From Pristiophorus japonicus (lineage: Eukaryota), in contig NC_091990.1 in NCBI RefSeq assembly GCF_044704955.1, positions 29,822,001 through 29,886,000 on the forward strand: a stretch of DNA of 64,000 nucleotides, written 5' to 3'. Of the stretch, positions 7,388-31,589 are shown piece by piece. Position 1 is the stretch's first letter; the number at the start of each line of letters is the position of its first letter. Under the pieces are notes generated by a model. The model saw only the letters and a program-made list of their open reading frames with translations, ran no database searches and was not told where the DNA came from. The position numbers and the translations under genes are program-made.

Positions 7388-9605
7388 AACATAGAAAATA
7401 GGTGCATGAGTAGGCCATTCGGCCCTTCGAACCTGTACCACCATTCAATATGATCATGGCTGATCATGCAACTTCAGTACCCCATTCCTGCTTTCTCTCT
7501 ATATCCCTTGATCCCTTTAGCCATAAGGGCCACATCTAACTCCCTTTTGAATATATCTAACTAACTGGCCTCAACAACTTTCTATGGTAGAGAATTCCAT
7601 AGGTTCACAATTCTCCTCATCTCGGTTCTAAATGGCTTACCCCTTATCCTTAAGTCTGGACTTCCCAACATCGGGAACCTTCTTCCTGCATCTATGTTTC
7701 TATGAGATTCCCTCTCATTCTTCTAAATTCCAGTGAATATAGAAACATAGACATAGAAACATAGAAAATAGGTGCAGGAGTAGGCCATTCGGCCCTTCTA
7801 GCCTGCACAGCCATTCAATGAGTTCATGGCTGAACATGCAACTTCAAGTACCCCATTCCTGCTTTCTCGTCATACCCCTTGATCCCCCTAGTAGTAAGGA
7901 CTTCATCTAACTCCTTTTTGAATATATTTAGTGAATTGGCCTCAACAACTTTCTGGGGTAGAGAATCCCACAGGTTCACCACTCCATGGGTGAAGAAGTT
8001 TCTCCTCATCTCGGTCCTAAATGGCTTACCCCTTATCCTGAGACTGTGACCCCTGGTTCTGGACTTCCCCAACATTGGGAACATTCTTCCTGCATCTAAC
8101 CTGTCTAAACCCATCAGAATTTTAAACGTTTCTATGAGGTCCCCTCTCATTCTTCTGAACTCCAGTGAATACAAGCCCAGTTGATCCAGTCTTTCTTGAT
8201 AGGTCAGTCCCGCCATCCCGGGAATCAGTCTAGTCGATCCAGTTTTTCCTTCACATCAGCCCTGCCATCCCAGGAATCAGTCTGGTGAACCTTTACTGCA
8301 CACCCTCAATAGCAAGAATGTCCTTCCTCAGGTTAGGAGACCAAAACTGCACACAGTACTCAAGGTGTGGTCTCACCAAGATCCTGTACAACTGCAGTAA
8401 GACCTCCCTGCTCCTATACTCAAATTCCCTCGCTATGAAGGCCAGCATGCCATTTGCTTTCTTTACTGCCTGCTGTACCTGCATGCCTACCTTCAATGAC
8501 TGATGTACCATGACACCCAGGTCTTGTGGCACCTCCCCTTTTACTAATCTGTCACCATTCAGATAATAATGTGCCTTCCTGTTTTTGCCACCAAAGTGGA
8601 TAACCTCACACTTATTCACATTATACTGCATCTGCCATGCATTTGCCCATTTACTTAACCTGTCCAAGTCCCCCTGCAGCCTCCAAGCATCCTCCTCGCA
8701 GCTCGCACTGCTACCCAGTTTAGTGTCATCTGCAAACTTGAAGATATTACATTCAATTCCTTTGTCTAAATCATTAATGTATATTGTAAATAGCTGGGGT
8801 CCCAGCACTGAACCCTGTGCACCCCACTAGTCACTGCCTGCCATTCTGAAAAGGACCCGTTTATTCCCACTCTTTGCTTCCTGTCTGCCAACCAGTTCTC
8901 TATCCACGTCAATACATTACCCCCAATACCTTGTGCCTTAATTTTGCACACTAATCTCTTGTGTGGGACCTTGTTAAAAGCCTTTTGAAAGTCCAAATAC
9001 ACCACATCCACTGGTTCTCCCTTATCCACTCTACTAGTTACATCCTCAAAAAACTCTAGAAGATTTGTCAAGCATGATTTCCCTTTCATAAATCCATGCT
9101 GACTTGGACAGATCCTGTCACTGCTTTCCAGATGCGCTGCTATGACATCTTTAATAATTGACTCCAGCATTTTCCCCGCCACTGATGTCAGGCTAACTGG
9201 TCTATAATTCCCTGTTTTCTCTCTCCCTCCTTTTTTTAAAAATGGGGTTACATTAGCTACCCTCCAATCCATAGGAACTGAACCAGAGTCCATGGAATGC
9301 TGGAAAATGACCACCAATGCATCACTATTTCTAGGGCACTTCCTTAAGTACTCTGGGATGCAGACTATCAGGCCCTGGATATTTATTGGCCTTCAGTCCC
9401 TTCAATTTCCCTAACAGCATTTCCTGACTAATAAGGATTTCCCTCAGTTCCCCCTTCGCACTAGACACTTGGTCCCCTAGTATTTTCGTGAGGTTATTCG
9501 TGTCTTCCTTAGTGAAGACAGAAGCAAAGTATTTGTTCAATTGGTCTGCCATTTCCTTGTTCCCAACTATGAATTCACCAGATTCTGACTGCAAGGGACC
9601 TACAT
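7388..9605 (-). mobile_element. CR1 LINE (ORF2 RT region to 3' tail) carrying a nested second CR1 3' end at about 7742-8232
   Basis: ORFs 9331-9594, 8766-9317, 8293-8808 and 7824-8216 encode CR1 RT motifs ([35 protein letters not shown]). Two separate (TTCTATGT)n tails at 7388 and 7742. Confidence 0.93.
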
Positions 9606-10439: not shown

Positions 10440-11222
10440 TAGGTTCACCAGATTGATTCCTGGGATGGAGAACATAAGAACATAAGAATTAGGAACAGGA
10501 GTAGGCCATCTAGCCCCTCGAGCCTGCTCCGCCATTCAAAAAGATCATGGCTGATCTGGCCGTGGACTCAGCTCCACTTACCCGCCCACTCCCCGTAACC
10601 CTTAATTCCCTTATTAGTTAAAAATCTATCTATCTGTGATTTGAATACATTCAATGAGCTAGCCTCAACTGCTTCCTTGGGCAGAGAATTCCACAGATTC
10701 ACAACCCTCTGGGAGAAGAAATTCCTTTTCAACTCGGTTTTAAATTGGCTTCCCCGTATTTTGAGGCTGTCTTATGAGGAGAGATTGAGTAGAATTGGCC
10801 TATATTCTCTAGCATTTAGAAGAATGAGAGATGATTTCATTGAAACATACAAAACTCTTACAGGGCTTGACAGAGTAGATGCAGGAAGGATGTTTCCCCT
10901 GGCTGGGGAGTTTAAAACCAGGGGTCACAGTCTCAGAATAAGGAGTCGGCCATTTAAAACTGAGATGAGGAGAAATGACTTCACTCAGAGGGTGGTAAAT
11001 CTTTGGAATTCTCTTCCCCAGAAGGTTGTGGAGGCTCAGTCATTAAGTATATTCAAGACAGAGATCGATCGATTTTTGGATATTAAAGGAATCAAAGGAC
11101 ATGGGGATAGTGCAGGAAAGTGGAGTTGAGATCGAAGATCAGCCATGATCTTATTGAATGGCAGAGCAAGCTCGAGGGGCCGAATGGCTGACTCCTCCTG
11201 TTTCTTACCTTTATGTTTCTAT
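10440..11222 (+). mobile_element. CR1 LINE 3' portion interrupted by an antisense CR1 3' end (about 10470-10768)
   Basis: Plus-strand RFTRLIPGM / YEERLSRIGLYSL...VVNLWNSLP is split by a minus-strand copy with an (AACATAAG)n tail. Confidence 0.9.
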
Positions 11223-20781: not shown

Positions 20782-23585
20782 CCAGGATATGATGTAATTG
20801 GGATTACAGAGACAAGGCTCCAGGGTAAACAAGGCTGGGAACTCAATATCCAGGGTTATTCAATGTTCAGGAAGGAAAAGGAGGGGTAGCGTTACTGGTT
20901 AAAGAGGAGATTAACGCAAGAGTAAGGAGGACATCAGCGTGGATGATGTTTCGCAGCTCTACTATATGGGTAGAGCTGCGAAACACTAAAAGGGCAGAAA
21001 ATGTTAGTGGGTGTTGTGTACAGACCACCAAACAGTAGTAGGGAGGTTGGGTATGGCATCAAACAGGAAATCAGGGATGCGTGCAACAAGGGTACAGCAG
21101 TTATCATGGGCGACTTTAATCTACATATTGATTGGGCTAACCAAACTGGTAGCAATACTGTGAGGAGGATTTCCTGGAGTGTATTAAGGGATGGTTTTGT
21201 AGACCAATGTCGAGGAACCAACTAGAGAGCAGGCCATCCTAGACTGGATCTTGTGTAACGAGAGAGAATTAATTAGCAATCTGGTCGTGCGTGGCCTCTT
21301 GGTGAAGAGTGACCATAATATGGTAGAATTCTTCATTAAGATGGAGAGCGACACAGTTAATTCAGAGACTAGGGTCCTGAACGTAAAGAAAGGAAACTTC
21401 GATGGTATGAGGCGTGATTTGGCTAGGATAGACTGACGAATGATACTTAAAGGGTTGACGGTGAATAAGTAATTCCAGACATTTAAAGATCACATGGATG
21501 AATTACAATTATTGTACATCCCTGTGTGGTGTAAAAATAAAACAGGAAAGGTGGCTCAACCGTGGCTAACAAGGGAAATTATGGATAGTGTTAAATCCAA
21601 GGAAGAGGCATATAAATTTGCCAGAAAAAGCAGCAAACCTGAGGACTGGGAGAAATGTAGAATTCGGCAGAGAAGGTTTAATTAGGAGGGGGAAAATAGA
21701 GTATGAGAGGAAGCTTGCAGGGAACATAAAAACTGACTGCAAAAGCTTCTATAGATATGTGAAGAAAAAAAGATTAGTGAAGACTAATGTAGGTCCCTTG
21801 CAGTAAGAATCAGATGAATTCATAATGGGGAACAAGGAAATAGCAAACCAACTGAACAAATACTTTGGTTCCGTCTTCACTAAGGAAGAGACACAAATAA
21901 CCTCTCGAAAATACAAGAGGACCGAGCGAGAAGGGGGAACTGAAGGAAATCCTTATTAGTCAGGAAATGGTGTTAGGGAAATTGAAGGGACTGAAGGGCG
22001 ATAAATCCCCAGGGTCTGATAGTTTGCATCCCAGAGTATTTAAGGAGGTAGCCTTAGAAATAGTGGATGCATTGGTAGTCATTTTCCAACATTCCATGGA
22101 CTCGGGATCAGTTCCTTGGATTGGAGGGTAGCTAATGTAATCCCACTTTTTTTAAAAAGGAGGGAGAGAAAACAGGGAATTATAGACAGTTAGCCTGACA
22201 TCGGTGGTGGGGAAAATACTGGAATCAATTATTAAAGATGTAATAGCAGCGCATTTGGAAACAGTGACAGGATCGGTGTCCAAGTCAGCATGGATTTATG
22301 AAAAGGAAATCATGCTGGACAAATCTTCTAGAATTTTTTGAGGATGTAACTAGTAGAGTGGACATGGGAGAATCAGTGGATGTGGTGTATTTGGACTTTC
22401 AAAAGGCTTTTGCCAAGGTCCCACACAAGAGATTAGTGTGCAAAATTAAGGCACATGGTATTGGGGGTAATGTATTGACGTGGGTAGAGAAATGGTTGGC
22501 AGACAGGAAGCAAAGAGTGAGAATAAACAGGTCCTTTTCAGAATGGCAGGCAGTGACTAGTGGAGTGCCGCAGGGTTCAGTGTTGGGACCCCAGTTATTT
22601 ACAATATACATTAATGATTTAGAGAAAGGAATTGAATGTAATAGCTCCAAGTTTGCAGATGACACTAGCTGGGTGGCAGGGTGAGCTGCGAGGAGGATGC
22701 CAAGAGGCTGCAGGGGGACTTGGACAGGTTAGGTGAATGGGCAAATGCATGGCAGATGCAGTATAATGTGGATCAATGTGAGGTTATCCACTTTGGTGGC
22801 AAAAACAGGAAGGCAGATTATCTGAATGGTGACAGATTAGTAAAAGGGGAGGTGCAACGAGACCTGGGTGTCATGGTACATCAGTCATTGAAGGTAGGCA
22901 TGCAGGTACAGCAGGCAGCAAAGAAAGCAAATGGCATGCTGGCCTTCATAGAGAGGGGATTTGAGTATAGGTGCAGGGAGGTTTTGCTGCAGTTGTACAG
23001 GGCCTTGGTGAGACCACACCTTGAGTACTGTGTGCAGTTTTGGTCTCCTAATCTGAGGAAGGGCGTGCTTGTTATTGAGGGAGTGCAGTGAAGGTTCATC
23101 AGGCCGATTACCAGGATGGCAGGACTGACATATGAGGAAACACTGGATCGGCTAGGCTTATACTCAATGAAATTTAAAAGAATGAGAGGGGATCTCATAG
23201 AAACGTATAAAATTCTGACGGGACTGGACAGGTTCGATGCAGGAAGAATGTTCCCGATGTTGGGGACATCCAGAACCAGGGGATACAGTCGAAGAATAAG
23301 GGGTAAGCCATATAGGACCGAGATGAGGAGAAATTTTTTCAGCCAGAGTTGTGAACCTGTGGAATTCTCTGCCACAGAAAGTTGTGGAGTTCAGAGTCCA
23401 GTTCAATGGACATATTCAAAAGGGAGTTGGATGTGGCCCTTACGGCTAAAGAGATCGGAGGTATGGAGAGAAGGCAGGGGTGGGGTACTGAAGTTGTATG
23501 ATCAGCCTCGATCATATTGAATGGCGGTGCAGGCTCGAAGGGCCGAATGGCCTGCTCCTGCACCTATTTTCTATGTATCTATGTA
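20782..23585 (+). mobile_element. CR1 LINE, most of ORF2 (APE endonuclease + RT) and 3' tail, frameshifted
   Basis: DVIGITET, GVVYRPPN, MGDFN and SDHN endonuclease motifs; [18 protein letters not shown] and FADDT RT motifs; TTTCTATGTATCTATGT tail. Confidence 0.95.
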
Positions 23586-27956: not shown

Positions 27957-28710
27957 CTTTTCCAGAAAAAAAAATATGAAAAGGACAATGGGAAGAGAGG
28001 AAGATGAAAATATATAAAACATTGTTTTTAAAATATATTTTACGATAAGGACATAGCTCGACTAGCAGCACAGCTAGATAGGTGACAGATGCAGTTCAAT
28101 TAAAAAAATTTTAAAATAATACATTTAGAACGCAGTTGAGAACACTGTATATAGAAACATAGAAAATAGGTGCAGGAGTAGGCCATTCAGCCCTTCGAGC
28201 CTGCAGCACCTTTCTATATGATCATGGCTGATCAGTCACCTCAGTACCCCTTTCCTGCTTTCTCTCCATACTCCTTGATCCCTTTAGCTGTAAGGGCCAT
28301 ATCTAATTCCCTCTTGAATATATCCAATGAACTGCCATCAACAACTCTCTGCAGCAGGGAATTCCACAGGTTAACAACTCAGTGAAGAAGTTTCTCCTCA
28401 TCTCAGGTCCTAAATGGCCTACCCCGTATCCTAAGACTGTGTCCCCTGGTCCTGGACTTCCCCAACATCGGGAACATTCTTCCCGCATCTAACCTGTCCC
28501 GTCCCGTCAGAATCTTACACGTTTCTATGAAATCCCCTCTCATCCTTCTAAACTCCAGTGTATAAAGTCCCAGTTGATCCAGTCGCTCCTCATATGTCAG
28601 TCCAGCCATCCCTGGAATCAGTCTGGTGAATCTTCGCTGCAATCCCTCAATAGCAAGAACGTCCTTCCTCAGATTAGGAGACCAAAACTGAACACATGAA
28701 ACTCTTTTGA

Positions 28711-28727
28711 GAAGGCCAAGAAGCGAT
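28711..28727 (-). pseudogene. U2 snRNA 5'-end fragment (about nt 1-16)
   Basis: ATCGCTTCTTGGCCTT versus U2 ATCGCTTCTCGGCCTT (15/16), starting exactly at U2 nt 1 and abutting the tRNA fragment. Confidence 0.6.
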
Positions 28728-28753
28728 ACTCGGATCGCTGGATTCAAAGTCCA
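28728..28753 (-). pseudogene. tRNA-Gln(TTG) internal fragment (anticodon arm, variable loop, T-stem 5' strand)
   Basis: TGGACTTTGAATCCAGCGATCCGAGT, 26 nt identical to vertebrate tRNA-Gln-TTG as recalled; not a complete cloverleaf. Confidence 0.85.
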
Positions 28754-28761
28754 CCAACGGT

Positions 28762-28877
28762 AAACCTACTGCACCTGGTATTCCGAGGTGGTCTCCCATC
28801 CAAGTACTAACTAGGGCTGACTCTGCTTAGCTTCTAAGATCAGACAAGATTGGGCATTTTCAGACTAGTGTGGCCAC
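28762..28877 (-). pseudogene. 5S rRNA pseudogene, near full length
   Basis: TGGCCACACTAGTCTG...GAAGCTAAGCAG...GTTAGTACTTGGATGGGAGACC...GGAATACCAGGTGCAGTAGGTTT. Internal A and C boxes are recognisable, with many CpG-type substitutions; solitary copy. Confidence 0.92.
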
Positions 28878-29590
28878 ATGAAACTCTTAAAGGTTAGTTT
28901 GCAGGTGCAGCAGGTAATCAGGAAGGCAAATGGAATGTTGGCCTTCATTGCGAGAGGGATGGAGTACAAAAGCAGGGAGGTCTTGCTGCAACTGTATAAG
29001 GTATTGGTAAGGCCGCACCTGGAGTACTGCGTGCAGTTTTGGTCACCTTACTTAAGGAAAGATTATACTAGCTTTGGAAGGGGTACAGAGACGATTCACT
29101 AGGCTGATTCCAGAAATGAGGGGGTTACCTTATGATGATAGATTGAGTAGACTGGGTCTTTACTCCTTGGGAGTTCAGAAGGATGAGGGGTGATTTTATA
29201 GAAACATTTAAAATCATGAAAGGGATAGACAAGATAGAGGAAGAGAGGTTGTTTCCATTGGTAGGGGAGACTCGAACTAGGGGGCACAGCCTCAAAATAC
29301 AGGGGAGCCAATTTAAAACCAAGTTGAGAAAGAATTTCTTCTCCCAGAGGGTTGTGAATCTGTGGAATTCTCTGCCCAAGGAAGCAGTTGAGGCTAGCTC
29401 ATTGAATGTTTTCAAGTCAAAGATAGATAGATTTTTAACCAATAGGAGAATTAAGGGTTACGGGGAGAGGGCGGGGGTAAGTGGAGCTGAGTCCACGACC
29501 AGATCAGCCATGATCTTATTGAATGGCGGAGCAGGCTCGAGGGGCTAGATGGCCTACTCCTGTTCCTAATTCTTATGTTCTTATGTTCTT
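28875..29590 (+). mobile_element. 5'-truncated CR1 LINE nested antisense in another CR1
   Basis: ORFs 28878-29102 and 29183-29548; (TTCTTATG)n tail; same subfamily as 10470-10768. Confidence 0.92.
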
Positions 29591-31589
29591 ACAATATTCC
29601 AGGTGAGGCTGCACCAAGGCCCTGTACAATTGCAGTAAAACCTCCCTGCTCCGATACTCAAATCCTCTAGCTATGAAGGCCAACATGCCATTTGCCTTCT
29701 TCACTGCCTGCTGTACCTGCATGCCAACTTTCAATGACTGATAAACCATGACACCCAGGTCCCGTTGCACCTCCCCTTTTCCTAATCTGCCGCCATTCAG
29801 ATAATATTCTGCCTTTGTGTTTTTGCCACCAGTGAATAACCTCACATTTATCCACATTATACTGCATCGGCCATGCATTTGCCCACTCACCTAACCTGTC
29901 CAAATCACCCTGAAGCCTCTTAGCATCCTCCTCACAGCTCACACCGCCACCCAGTTTAAACTTGGAGATATAACACTCAATTCCTTCATCCAAATCATTA
30001 ATGTATATTGTAAAGAGCTAGGGTCCCAGCACTGAGCCCTGCGGCACTCCACTAGTCATTGCCTCCCATTCCGAAAAGGACCCGTTTATCCCAACTCTCT
30101 GCTTCCTGTCTGCCAACCAATTCTCTATCCACGTCAGTACATTACCCCAATACCATGTGCTTTGATTTTGCACACCAATCTCTTATGTGGGACCTTGTCA
30201 AAGGCCTTTTGAAAGTCCAAATACATCACATCCACAGGTTCTCCCTTGTCCACTCTACTAATTACATCCTCAAAAAATTCCAGAAGATTTGTCGAGCATG
30301 ATTTTCCCTTCATAAATCCATGCTGACTTGGACCGATCCTGTCACTGCTTTCCAAATGCGCTGCTATTTCATCCTTAATAATTGATTCCAACATTTTCCC
30401 CACTACTGATGTCAGGCTAACCGGTCTATAATTACCCGCCTTCTCTCTCCCTCCCTTTTTAAAAAAAAAAGTGGTGTTACATTAGCTACCCTCCAGTCCA
30501 TAGGAACTGATCCAGAGTCGATAGACTGTTGGAAAATGATCACCAATGCATCCACTATTTTTAGGGCCACTTCCTTAAGTACTCTGGGATGCAGACAATC
30601 AGACCCCGGGGATTTATCAGCCTTCAATCCCATCAATTTCTCCAACACAATTTCCCACCTAATAAGGATATCCTTCAGTTCCTCCTTCTCACTAGACCCT
30701 CGGTCCCCTAGTACATCCGGAAGGTTATTTGTGTCTTCCTTCGTGAAGACAGAACCAAAGTATTTGTTCAATTGGTCTGCCATTTCTTTGTTCCCCATTA
30801 TAAATTCACCTGAGTCCGACTGCAAGGAACCTAACGTTTGTCTTCACTAATCTTTTTCTCTTCACATATCTATAGAAGCTTTTGCAGTCAATTTTTATGT
30901 TCCCGGTAAGCTTCCTCTTGTAATCTATTTTCCCCCTCCTAATTAAACCCTTTGTCCTCCTCTGCTGAATTCTAAATTTCTCCTAGTCCTCAGGTTTGCT
31001 GCTTTTTCTGGCCAATTTATATGCCTCTTCCTTGAATCTAACACTATCCTTAATTTCCCTTGTTAGCCACGGTTGAGCCACCTTCCCTGTTTTATTTTTA
31101 CTCCATATATAGTTTTTGGCACCCCGTTATAGGAAGGATATAAAACTAGTGGAAAAGCTATGGTGCGGTTTTACTAGGACTGAGGTTACTTGGAAAAAAA
31201 AGAGTGCCGGATTTTGCAACAATAAGGGTGAGGCCAACGGCGCTTACCGTTACAACGGGGTAAATCGGATAGCAACTTCTGGCGTCCGCATATGCAATTA
31301 AACGCACAAATCCGGAAGTTGCTGTCAAGAGATACCCTGCTCCTTCACATGCTGCACTTTTGCAATTCCATGCCGATACTCGGCATTGATATCACTGTAT
31401 CCCACTAATTCTGCACTAAAAACAACTGTAAAAGTTAATGCTCGTGCATTCAGGAGTAACTGAGTATTTAACGGCGTGATATGTGATCATTATTGCTGAA
31501 CAACCTTCTGCTGGCCCTGAAAATTTAATTTTACAAGTGTGGAGTCTCATTTCCTCAGAAGAAAATTCGTGTTGGAGATTTTGTAAAAA

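Follow-up and report, generated by a model that had tools for sequence, protein, structure and literature searches.

The cassette on the minus strand at positions 28693-28888 of the window (the whole 64,000-nt stretch of Pristiophorus japonicus DNA that was analysed) is a real feature that behaves like a template-switch chimeric retrocopy, likely made by a LINE which sequence comparison places in the Tx1 clade. We consider it about 70% probable that the cassette ends in the 3' tip of this LINE at the LINE's fixed site in the ORF2 of a CR1-type element, and that it arose in one reverse transcription reaction with two template jumps. The features of the locus are the following:

28156..28696, minus strand: 3' part of an older CR1-type LINE copy, which hosts all else (~68% to the young copy)
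28693..28700, minus strand: target flank after insertion, TTCATG plus 2 nt of the older copy (canonical target, TTCATGCACAAGGA)
28701..28711, minus strand: 11-nt 3' tip of the Tx1-clade LINE, CTCAAAAGAGT (11-nt suffix match to natural LINE 3' ends)
28712..28727, minus strand: U2 snRNA nt 1-16, ending in the loop of the first stem-loop (15/16 match, shuffles, fold of the U2 5' end)
28728..28753, minus strand: diverged tRNA-Gln(TTG) from the anticodon arm to the T-loop, truncated at the first T-loop T (identical to tRNA-Gln(ttg) genes at 26/26 positions)
28754..28761, minus strand: 5' leader of this diverged tRNA-Gln, followed by its two initial G (leader also in L077, L079, L080 and L185)
28762..28875, minus strand: 5S rRNA copy, nt ~7-120 (Rfam; diagnostic changes of a 14-copy 5S/tRNA-Gln fusion family)
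28875..28882, minus strand: target-site duplication of 8 nt, or 6 nt if its last two letters are 5S with CpG decay (from sequence; such duplications measure 0-14 nt elsewhere)
28883..28888, minus strand: 6-nt stub of the LINE tip (105 stub-type junctions genome-wide)
28889..29591, plus strand: young 5'-truncated CR1-type copy with the Tx1 target site (91-95% to 8 of 8 empty-site copies)
29592..30933, minus strand: 5' part of the older CR1-type copy (sequence comparison)

Composition of the cassette

The 5S, tRNA-Gln and U2 pieces lie on the minus strand where the original prediction had placed them. The 5S piece (28763-28881) matched Rfam RF00001 with 65.9 bits against a gathering score of 38, which was the sole gathering-level Rfam match in the whole window, and its true 5S portion begins at about 28875, corresponding to nt 7 of the genome's own 5S unit. 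Since the tRNA and U2 pieces are too short for Rfam and ARAGORN, they were identified against the genome's own genes; Rfam at E<=10 detected neither piece in the window, and ARAGORN called no whole tRNA there. The tRNA piece (28728-28753) was identical at 26 of 26 positions to ARAGORN-called tRNA-Gln(ttg) genes (L148, L149, L151), with 118 exact matches genome-wide and none for the control. The U2 piece (28712-28727) shared 15 of 16 positions with the first 16 nt of the U2 genes in this genome, the exception being a C>T change at a CpG. A match of this quality anywhere in U2 was reached by none of 20,000 shuffles (the best, 14, by 3 shuffles). Within the 754 kb compared, the 16-nt U2 piece was found only in U2 genes and at the cassette locus.

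Two details of the original prediction had to be corrected. The seven letters CCGTTGG, previously taken for a linker, are the 5' leader of the tRNA, behind which approximately 25 nt of the tRNA have been deleted. Further, the insert had been said to lack a LINE tail, but the 11 nt after the U2 match are those of natural LINE ends, and six of them lie inside the 14-nt repeat that flanks the cassette. The tRNA/U2 joint and the U2/tip joint each have 1 match genome-wide, so that U2 adjoining the tip was found once.

The small RNA pieces share the sense of the LINE 3' end and the U2 joints are unique to the locus, as expected of a template-switch retrocopy; retro-insertion by template jumping, as proposed earlier, is supported. 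The cassette is neither a SINEU nor a U2-containing SINE: SINEU elements form multicopy families with a U1- or U2-derived 5' head, whereas U2 is internal and single-copy here. A linked 5S-tRNA-U2 gene array was rejected as the source, the arrays that were read being on different contigs and having spacers. Twin priming by the adjoining CR1 was also rejected, as the pieces are antisense to CR1 and in sense with the Tx1 tip.

Target site and flanking repeat

The cassette stands at the 5' end of the young CR1-type copy, itself inserted in an older minus-strand copy whose halves (28156..28696 and 29592-30933) are contiguous (L206 coordinates 622/621). The target site falls in the RT-coding frame of the host LINE, about 700 nt from its 3' end, and the RT frame spans it; in its empty form the site has 23,130 occurrences genome-wide. 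At the cassette only TTCATG matches the canonical target, because the young CR1 copy extends only 4-6 nt beyond the nick. The ORF of the target LINE carries an RVT_1 domain, and its protein has relatives at 47-68% in shark and ray as well as in birds and turtles; the source records name none of them CR1 and give no clade for any. We tentatively call the element CR1-type on account of its bird relatives and of its C-terminal and tail features. The window contains more old CR1-type copies at ~68-71% to the young family (8545-8921, 22466-22881, 7741-9605 and 21691-23584), as well as a 97% CR1-type piece at 10469-10770.

The 14-nt repeat reported earlier (28693-28706 and 28875-28888) is present and exact. 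Its interpretation as a 14-bp target-site duplication is not retained: the repeat is best read as six nt of stub or tip plus a 6-8-nt duplication of the target. A duplication of 6-8 nt around the whole insert lies inside the 0-14 range of other filled sites; of 52 filled sites whose upstream flank is intact, 20 have all 14 nt of the target duplicated and the others 0-13 nt, the zero-duplication class comprising stubs and perhaps some miscalled sites. Stub-type junctions numbered 105 genome-wide, the cassette locus included, against 0 for the control (20 were read), and the stub at 28883..28888 is likely left from a previous insertion that aborted and took the place of 5 nt of CR1. Alternatively, a 14-nt duplication may have been cut over an earlier stub, which would likewise need the LINE tip.

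The 5S/tRNA-Gln fusion family

A genome search with the cassette gave 41 scored matches from 675 candidates, the best 12 of which include the tRNA part. When the joints were searched separately, as the original prediction had suggested for telling a SINE family from a one-off chimera, the answer differed by joint: that between 5S and tRNA was present at 14 loci (<=1 mismatch; control 0), whereas the tRNA/U2 joint was single-copy. U2 is present on only 1 of the 14 fusion copies, which refutes a composite SINE that includes U2. All 14 copies share the ~25-nt tRNA deletion, which is at odds with the joining of three RNAs in one go. On the question of whether copies sit at the same CR1 site, 12 of the 14 do, ending in tip plus target (TTCATG), and 10 of these 12 carry only 9-12 nt of LINE. 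The remaining two (L003 and L005) have no tip, meaning that other insertion routes exist.

Both the 3' and the 5' joints vary among the fusion copies, some stopping in the T-loop like the cassette and others reaching the T-tract; 3' ends and tip variants differ as well, only L007 and L010 sharing one. The shared deletion together with the differing joints points to copies of one pre-existing RNA, and most likely the 5S/tRNA fusion was already a single RNA before the cassette was inserted. Two subtypes, of 6 and 5 members, were distinguished among the 11 copies comparable, L064, L069 and L072 having been left out of the subtype and dating comparison owing to truncation or an indel. The fusion copy of the window and that of L002 end at the same base and differ at 1 of 141 positions. 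With respect to SINE3-type elements, the 5S/tRNA part shows the uniform internal structure, whereas an inherited, LINE-derived shared tail is missing; each insertion seems to have acquired its LINE tip anew. We predict that the fused RNA was transcribed by Pol III from an older chimera, given the 5S promoter, the presence of only three T at the old 5S end and the T-run behind the tRNA.

A candidate source locus is L003 (1496-1690), a full fusion that lacks a tip, a CR1 flank and a clear target-site duplication and takes a central place in one subtype, but its 3' end differs and it carries a CpG change absent from most copies. At L005 (1480-1815, minus-strand view), the fusion is combined with a second tRNA piece and an unidentified segment of ~70 nt, the whole lying between 13-nt repeats and having no Tx1 tip. 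The diverged tRNA-Gln occurs on its own, too. Its 3' end has 122 occurrences, its leader heads dispersed copies (L077, L079, L080), and L185 is an independent, undeleted 5S+tRNA chimera with the same leader. Copies with a broken acceptor stem, a leader and a T-tract occupy ~120 places (L173-L202, L075-L085), where they adjoin several different LINEs and also form tandem pairs, in the manner of a second SINE-like family. An older 5S + tRNA-Gln(CTG)-like chimera, with a possible 15-nt duplication, was observed at L014 (1400-1720, minus-strand view) within a tRNA-headed SINE that is presumably Deu-type.

The LINE that donates the tip

The donor LINE forms units of ~7.2 kb, in tandem. Three copies were fetched: one is intact (ORFs of 698 and 1299 aa), another has a full-length ORF2 and a shorter ORF1, and one has broken frames. 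Its ORF2 contains APE and RT domains, with a zf-RVT match below cut-off, and resembles L1 ORF2p among solved structures. Judged by the ORF2 protein, which is 49% identical over 1296 aa (99% of the query) to Xenopus Tx1L ORF2 (TX1 149 kDa), the best match bearing an element name, the LINE belongs to the Tx1 clade.

The junction of tip and target has 15,664 exact occurrences (control 0), a figure that includes tandem arrays and multiply hit sites and is therefore not a number of loci. For a sample independent of this junction, a motif at the ORF2 end (15,040 matches) was employed and the first 30 copies were read; these are neighbours on one contig, with tandem arrays and near-identical duplicates, and hence are not independent. 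The tip end followed ORF2 in 30/30 of them and the target came next in 28/30, the downstream sequence being CR1 in 14, another LINE copy in 14 and off-target in 2. In this non-independent sample, the share of 28/30 exceeds the >20% of flanks of one type by which Kojima defines a target preference. With two target letters added, a small hairpin forms at the terminus of 16 of the 18 natural LINE ends compared and not at the other 2, in a comparison made with no shuffle control. The intact copy at L058 (G000:C1:9709700-9717700) is one of at least 8 units arrayed head-to-tail with the 14-nt target between neighbours, and C1 carries further arrays of this kind.

Capture of small RNAs at the site

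A T-loop motif within 30 nt of tip plus target was found at 35 junctions genome-wide, of which 30 were read. ARAGORN called a tRNA in 24 of the 30, a 19-20-nt intron was kept in 11, a T-run stood just before the tip in 23, and many captured tRNAs retained leaders and trailers, as judged by eye. These captures are unprocessed Pol III transcripts rather than mature tRNAs. The 30-nt gap in the search pattern partly forces the 9-14-nt tip lengths of this set and yields only sense captures; in the 14-copy fusion family, picked without that bias, 10/12 still have 9-12 nt of LINE.

Two-RNA inserts were recognised by ARAGORN or Rfam in 5 of the 30:

L124, L127: 5S+tRNA (the L124 tRNA scoring just under the cut-off)
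L130, L138: two tRNAs
L141: U6atac + tRNA-Tyr

Four further inserts look double by eye only, and in L177, which came from a different search, the tip is preceded by three tRNA-type RNAs arranged head-to-tail. This site captures pre-tRNAs, 5S and U6atac routinely, and often in head-to-tail strings. Among the 30, an intron-bearing pre-tRNA-Tyr was captured much more often than any other tRNA (L122, L125, L128-L130, L132, L136, L138, L141-L144, L146), mostly with one trailer sequence, which suggests one or few source genes. At L127, the sense 5S+tRNA-Ser insert is preceded by part of the 5S 5' end in inverted orientation, resembling twin priming. Ordinary 5S was joined to long 3' portions of Tx1, or lay stacked behind Tx1 copies inserted earlier (L015, L019, L020, L013), and L004 (1430-1497, minus-strand view) has an insert of ~65 nt before the tip with no Rfam match.

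Proposed mechanism and alternatives

In the reading that we prefer, the LINE endonuclease would have nicked the CR1 sense strand at the site, which likely already bore the 6-nt stub, and the reverse transcriptase would have copied only the terminal 11 nt of the LINE, which can fold as a small hairpin. From there it may have jumped to a U2 5' fragment ending in UU and copied this to nt 1, and then to the pre-fused 5S/tRNA-Gln RNA ending in the T-loop U, which it would have copied almost to the 5S 5' end, before joining left a duplication of 6-8 nt. The purine-rich cDNA end could, speculatively, pair with U-ended RNAs. The LINE, its site, the tip, the fusion family and the unique U2 joints are observed directly, whereas the order of jumps, the transcription of the fused RNA and the insertion in place are what we infer.

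Insertion in place requires that two hits be assumed at a target that is only half canonical. This assumption would be spared if a Tx1-made cassette had arisen in another CR1 copy and been re-inserted through CR1 proteins, with truncation just past the cassette, a course of events that we regard as unlikely. Private changes run at similar rates in CR1 (6/668) and in the cassette (1-2 in 141-168 nt), which suits such hitchhiking and cannot separate it from insertion in place, and identical small inserts are indeed found at several CR1 loci (L023, L027, L030, L036), where they may be duplications. However, the uniqueness of the tRNA/U2 and U2/tip joints means that the assembly holds no source copy. 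Moreover, the repeat runs on for two letters that agree with the host flank, for which hitchhiking would need a CpG change in the 5S, and insertion at a poor target has precedent in the off-target cases (2/30; L019, L079). Ligation of the RNAs into one molecule by an RtcB-type activity prior to reverse transcription is improbable. Both short pieces end in loops, like cleavage products, but the tRNA is joined to nt 1 of U2, and pre-tRNA leaders form the joint in many other cases. RtcB does not accept such 5' ends, which carry a cap or a triphosphate, and this disfavours the route. It has nonetheless been proposed for L1 chimeras by Law and Burns (2026, PMC13174262), on whose reasoning pieces that are all in the sense of the LINE indicate template switch or ligation and not twin priming.

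Two separate insertions, in which U2 and the tip came first and a tip-less 5S/tRNA copy followed exactly at the U2 5' end, appear very improbable. Repeated hits at one site are common (L002, L008, L064), tip-less fusion copies exist (2/14), and the option is named for tripartite chimeras by Doucet (2015, PMC4476161); yet the repeat-hit loci that were read show tip and target letters between the insertions, and none stand between tRNA and U2. We give least credence to the view that three free RNAs were joined de novo, with no LINE tail and a true 14-bp target-site duplication, or that the cassette is a composite SINE with U2. The repeat does have exactly the canonical length of 14 nt, and the cut may have been displaced by 6 nt over a stub already present. 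Against this view, the 5S/tRNA joint and the deletion are common to 14 loci, five extra letters complete a natural LINE end, and one copy only carries U2. A single reaction with two jumps rather than three, starting from the LINE tip, is the reading retained.

Comparison with known systems

Template-jump chimeras and Tx1 elements that target transposons are already known. Tx1 families target Tx1D, piggyBac, Mariner, Harbinger and LTR elements, RNA genes (U2) and microsatellites, and U1/U2 sequences are added by template jump (Kojima 2015, PMC4494074). Like the LINE described here, Xenopus Tx1L, which targets Tx1D, and crocodilian Tx1-Mar with its SINEU are two-ORF APE-RT LINEs that prefer a mobile-element target, their tandem insertions sandwich a target-site duplication and they acquire snRNA pieces via template jumps (PMC4494074). 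In contrast to those targets, the target here is the ORF2 of another LINE, in antisense; in contrast to Tx1-Mar/SINEU, U2 adjoins the LINE tip instead of forming a head, and the main cargo is pre-tRNA. The excerpt of Kojima (2020, PMC7245038) makes no mention of Tx1, and a literature search that reached few subscription journals, with Repbase and Dfam outside its scope, returned no Tx1 family targeting CR1 or any LINE.

As in U6-L1, U6-L2 and tRNA/5S-L1 chimeras, the small RNA lies 5' of a LINE 3' end within a target-site duplication (PMC4476161, PMC13174262), and platypus U6-L2 has a short LINE part like that of the cassette. Tripartite chimeras, U6-L2 among the subjects, are treated by Doucet (2015, PMC4476161), and human L1 chimeras with tRNA and 5S, mostly antisense, by Law and Burns (2026, PMC13174262). 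The human tRNA/5S chimeras are few (21 for tRNA), mostly antisense and made of tRNA halves (PMC4476161, PMC13174262), while the captures read here are in sense (partly by search design), unprocessed, often multiple and at one address. The tripartite chimeras that Gogvadze (2007, PMC2104539) ascribes to a double template jump likewise combine three templates in one insertion with short flanking repeats; they were reported as single or rare, whereas at the present site two-RNA inserts amount to at least 5/30 and three-RNA inserts occur. A 5S head added to a tRNA SINE is known from the composite SINEs cited in PMC4494074. By their description, SINE3 and 5S+tRNA composites resemble the fusion in having a 5S head followed by tRNA-derived sequence, a shared internal deletion and subtypes; the fusion differs in having only 14 copies, no body and no inherited tail. 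What sets the present system apart from the literature searched is a Tx1 LINE aimed at another LINE, together with the frequent serial capture of precursor RNAs and a proto-SINE of 14 copies.

Biological significance

The single cassette is, taken alone, an ordinary by-product. Beyond it, we tentatively raise the possibility, on which we would lean towards doubt, that an undescribed Tx1 family parasitises another LINE. Through one site in the CR1 RT gene it would have broken thousands of copies; its reverse transcriptase would routinely prime on an 11-nt hairpin tip and string U-ended RNAs (pre-tRNAs, 5S, U6atac and U2 pieces) there, and the 14-copy fusion would be a SINE at birth, its tail borrowed afresh with each jump.

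As a rule, the way in which SINEs gain heads and tails has to be deduced from families that are already complete. At the present site, which can be searched as a single address, the stages coexist, comprising bare stubs, the tip with one RNA and strings of two or three RNAs, together with the diverged tRNA at ~120 places and the fused 5S/tRNA RNA at 14. The rules of template jumping can thereby be counted in vivo, including the choice of 3' ends, the length of LINE copied beforehand and whether RNAs are joined by jump or ligation. An intact site-specific ORF2p with strong jumping, whose activity is predicted, would be of interest for the enzymology of RNA sequencing. If true, the targeting of one LINE's ORF2 by another LINE would bring a further class of target to the Tx1 clade, and a CR1-targeting Tx1 may bear on the CR1 load in large shark-like genomes.
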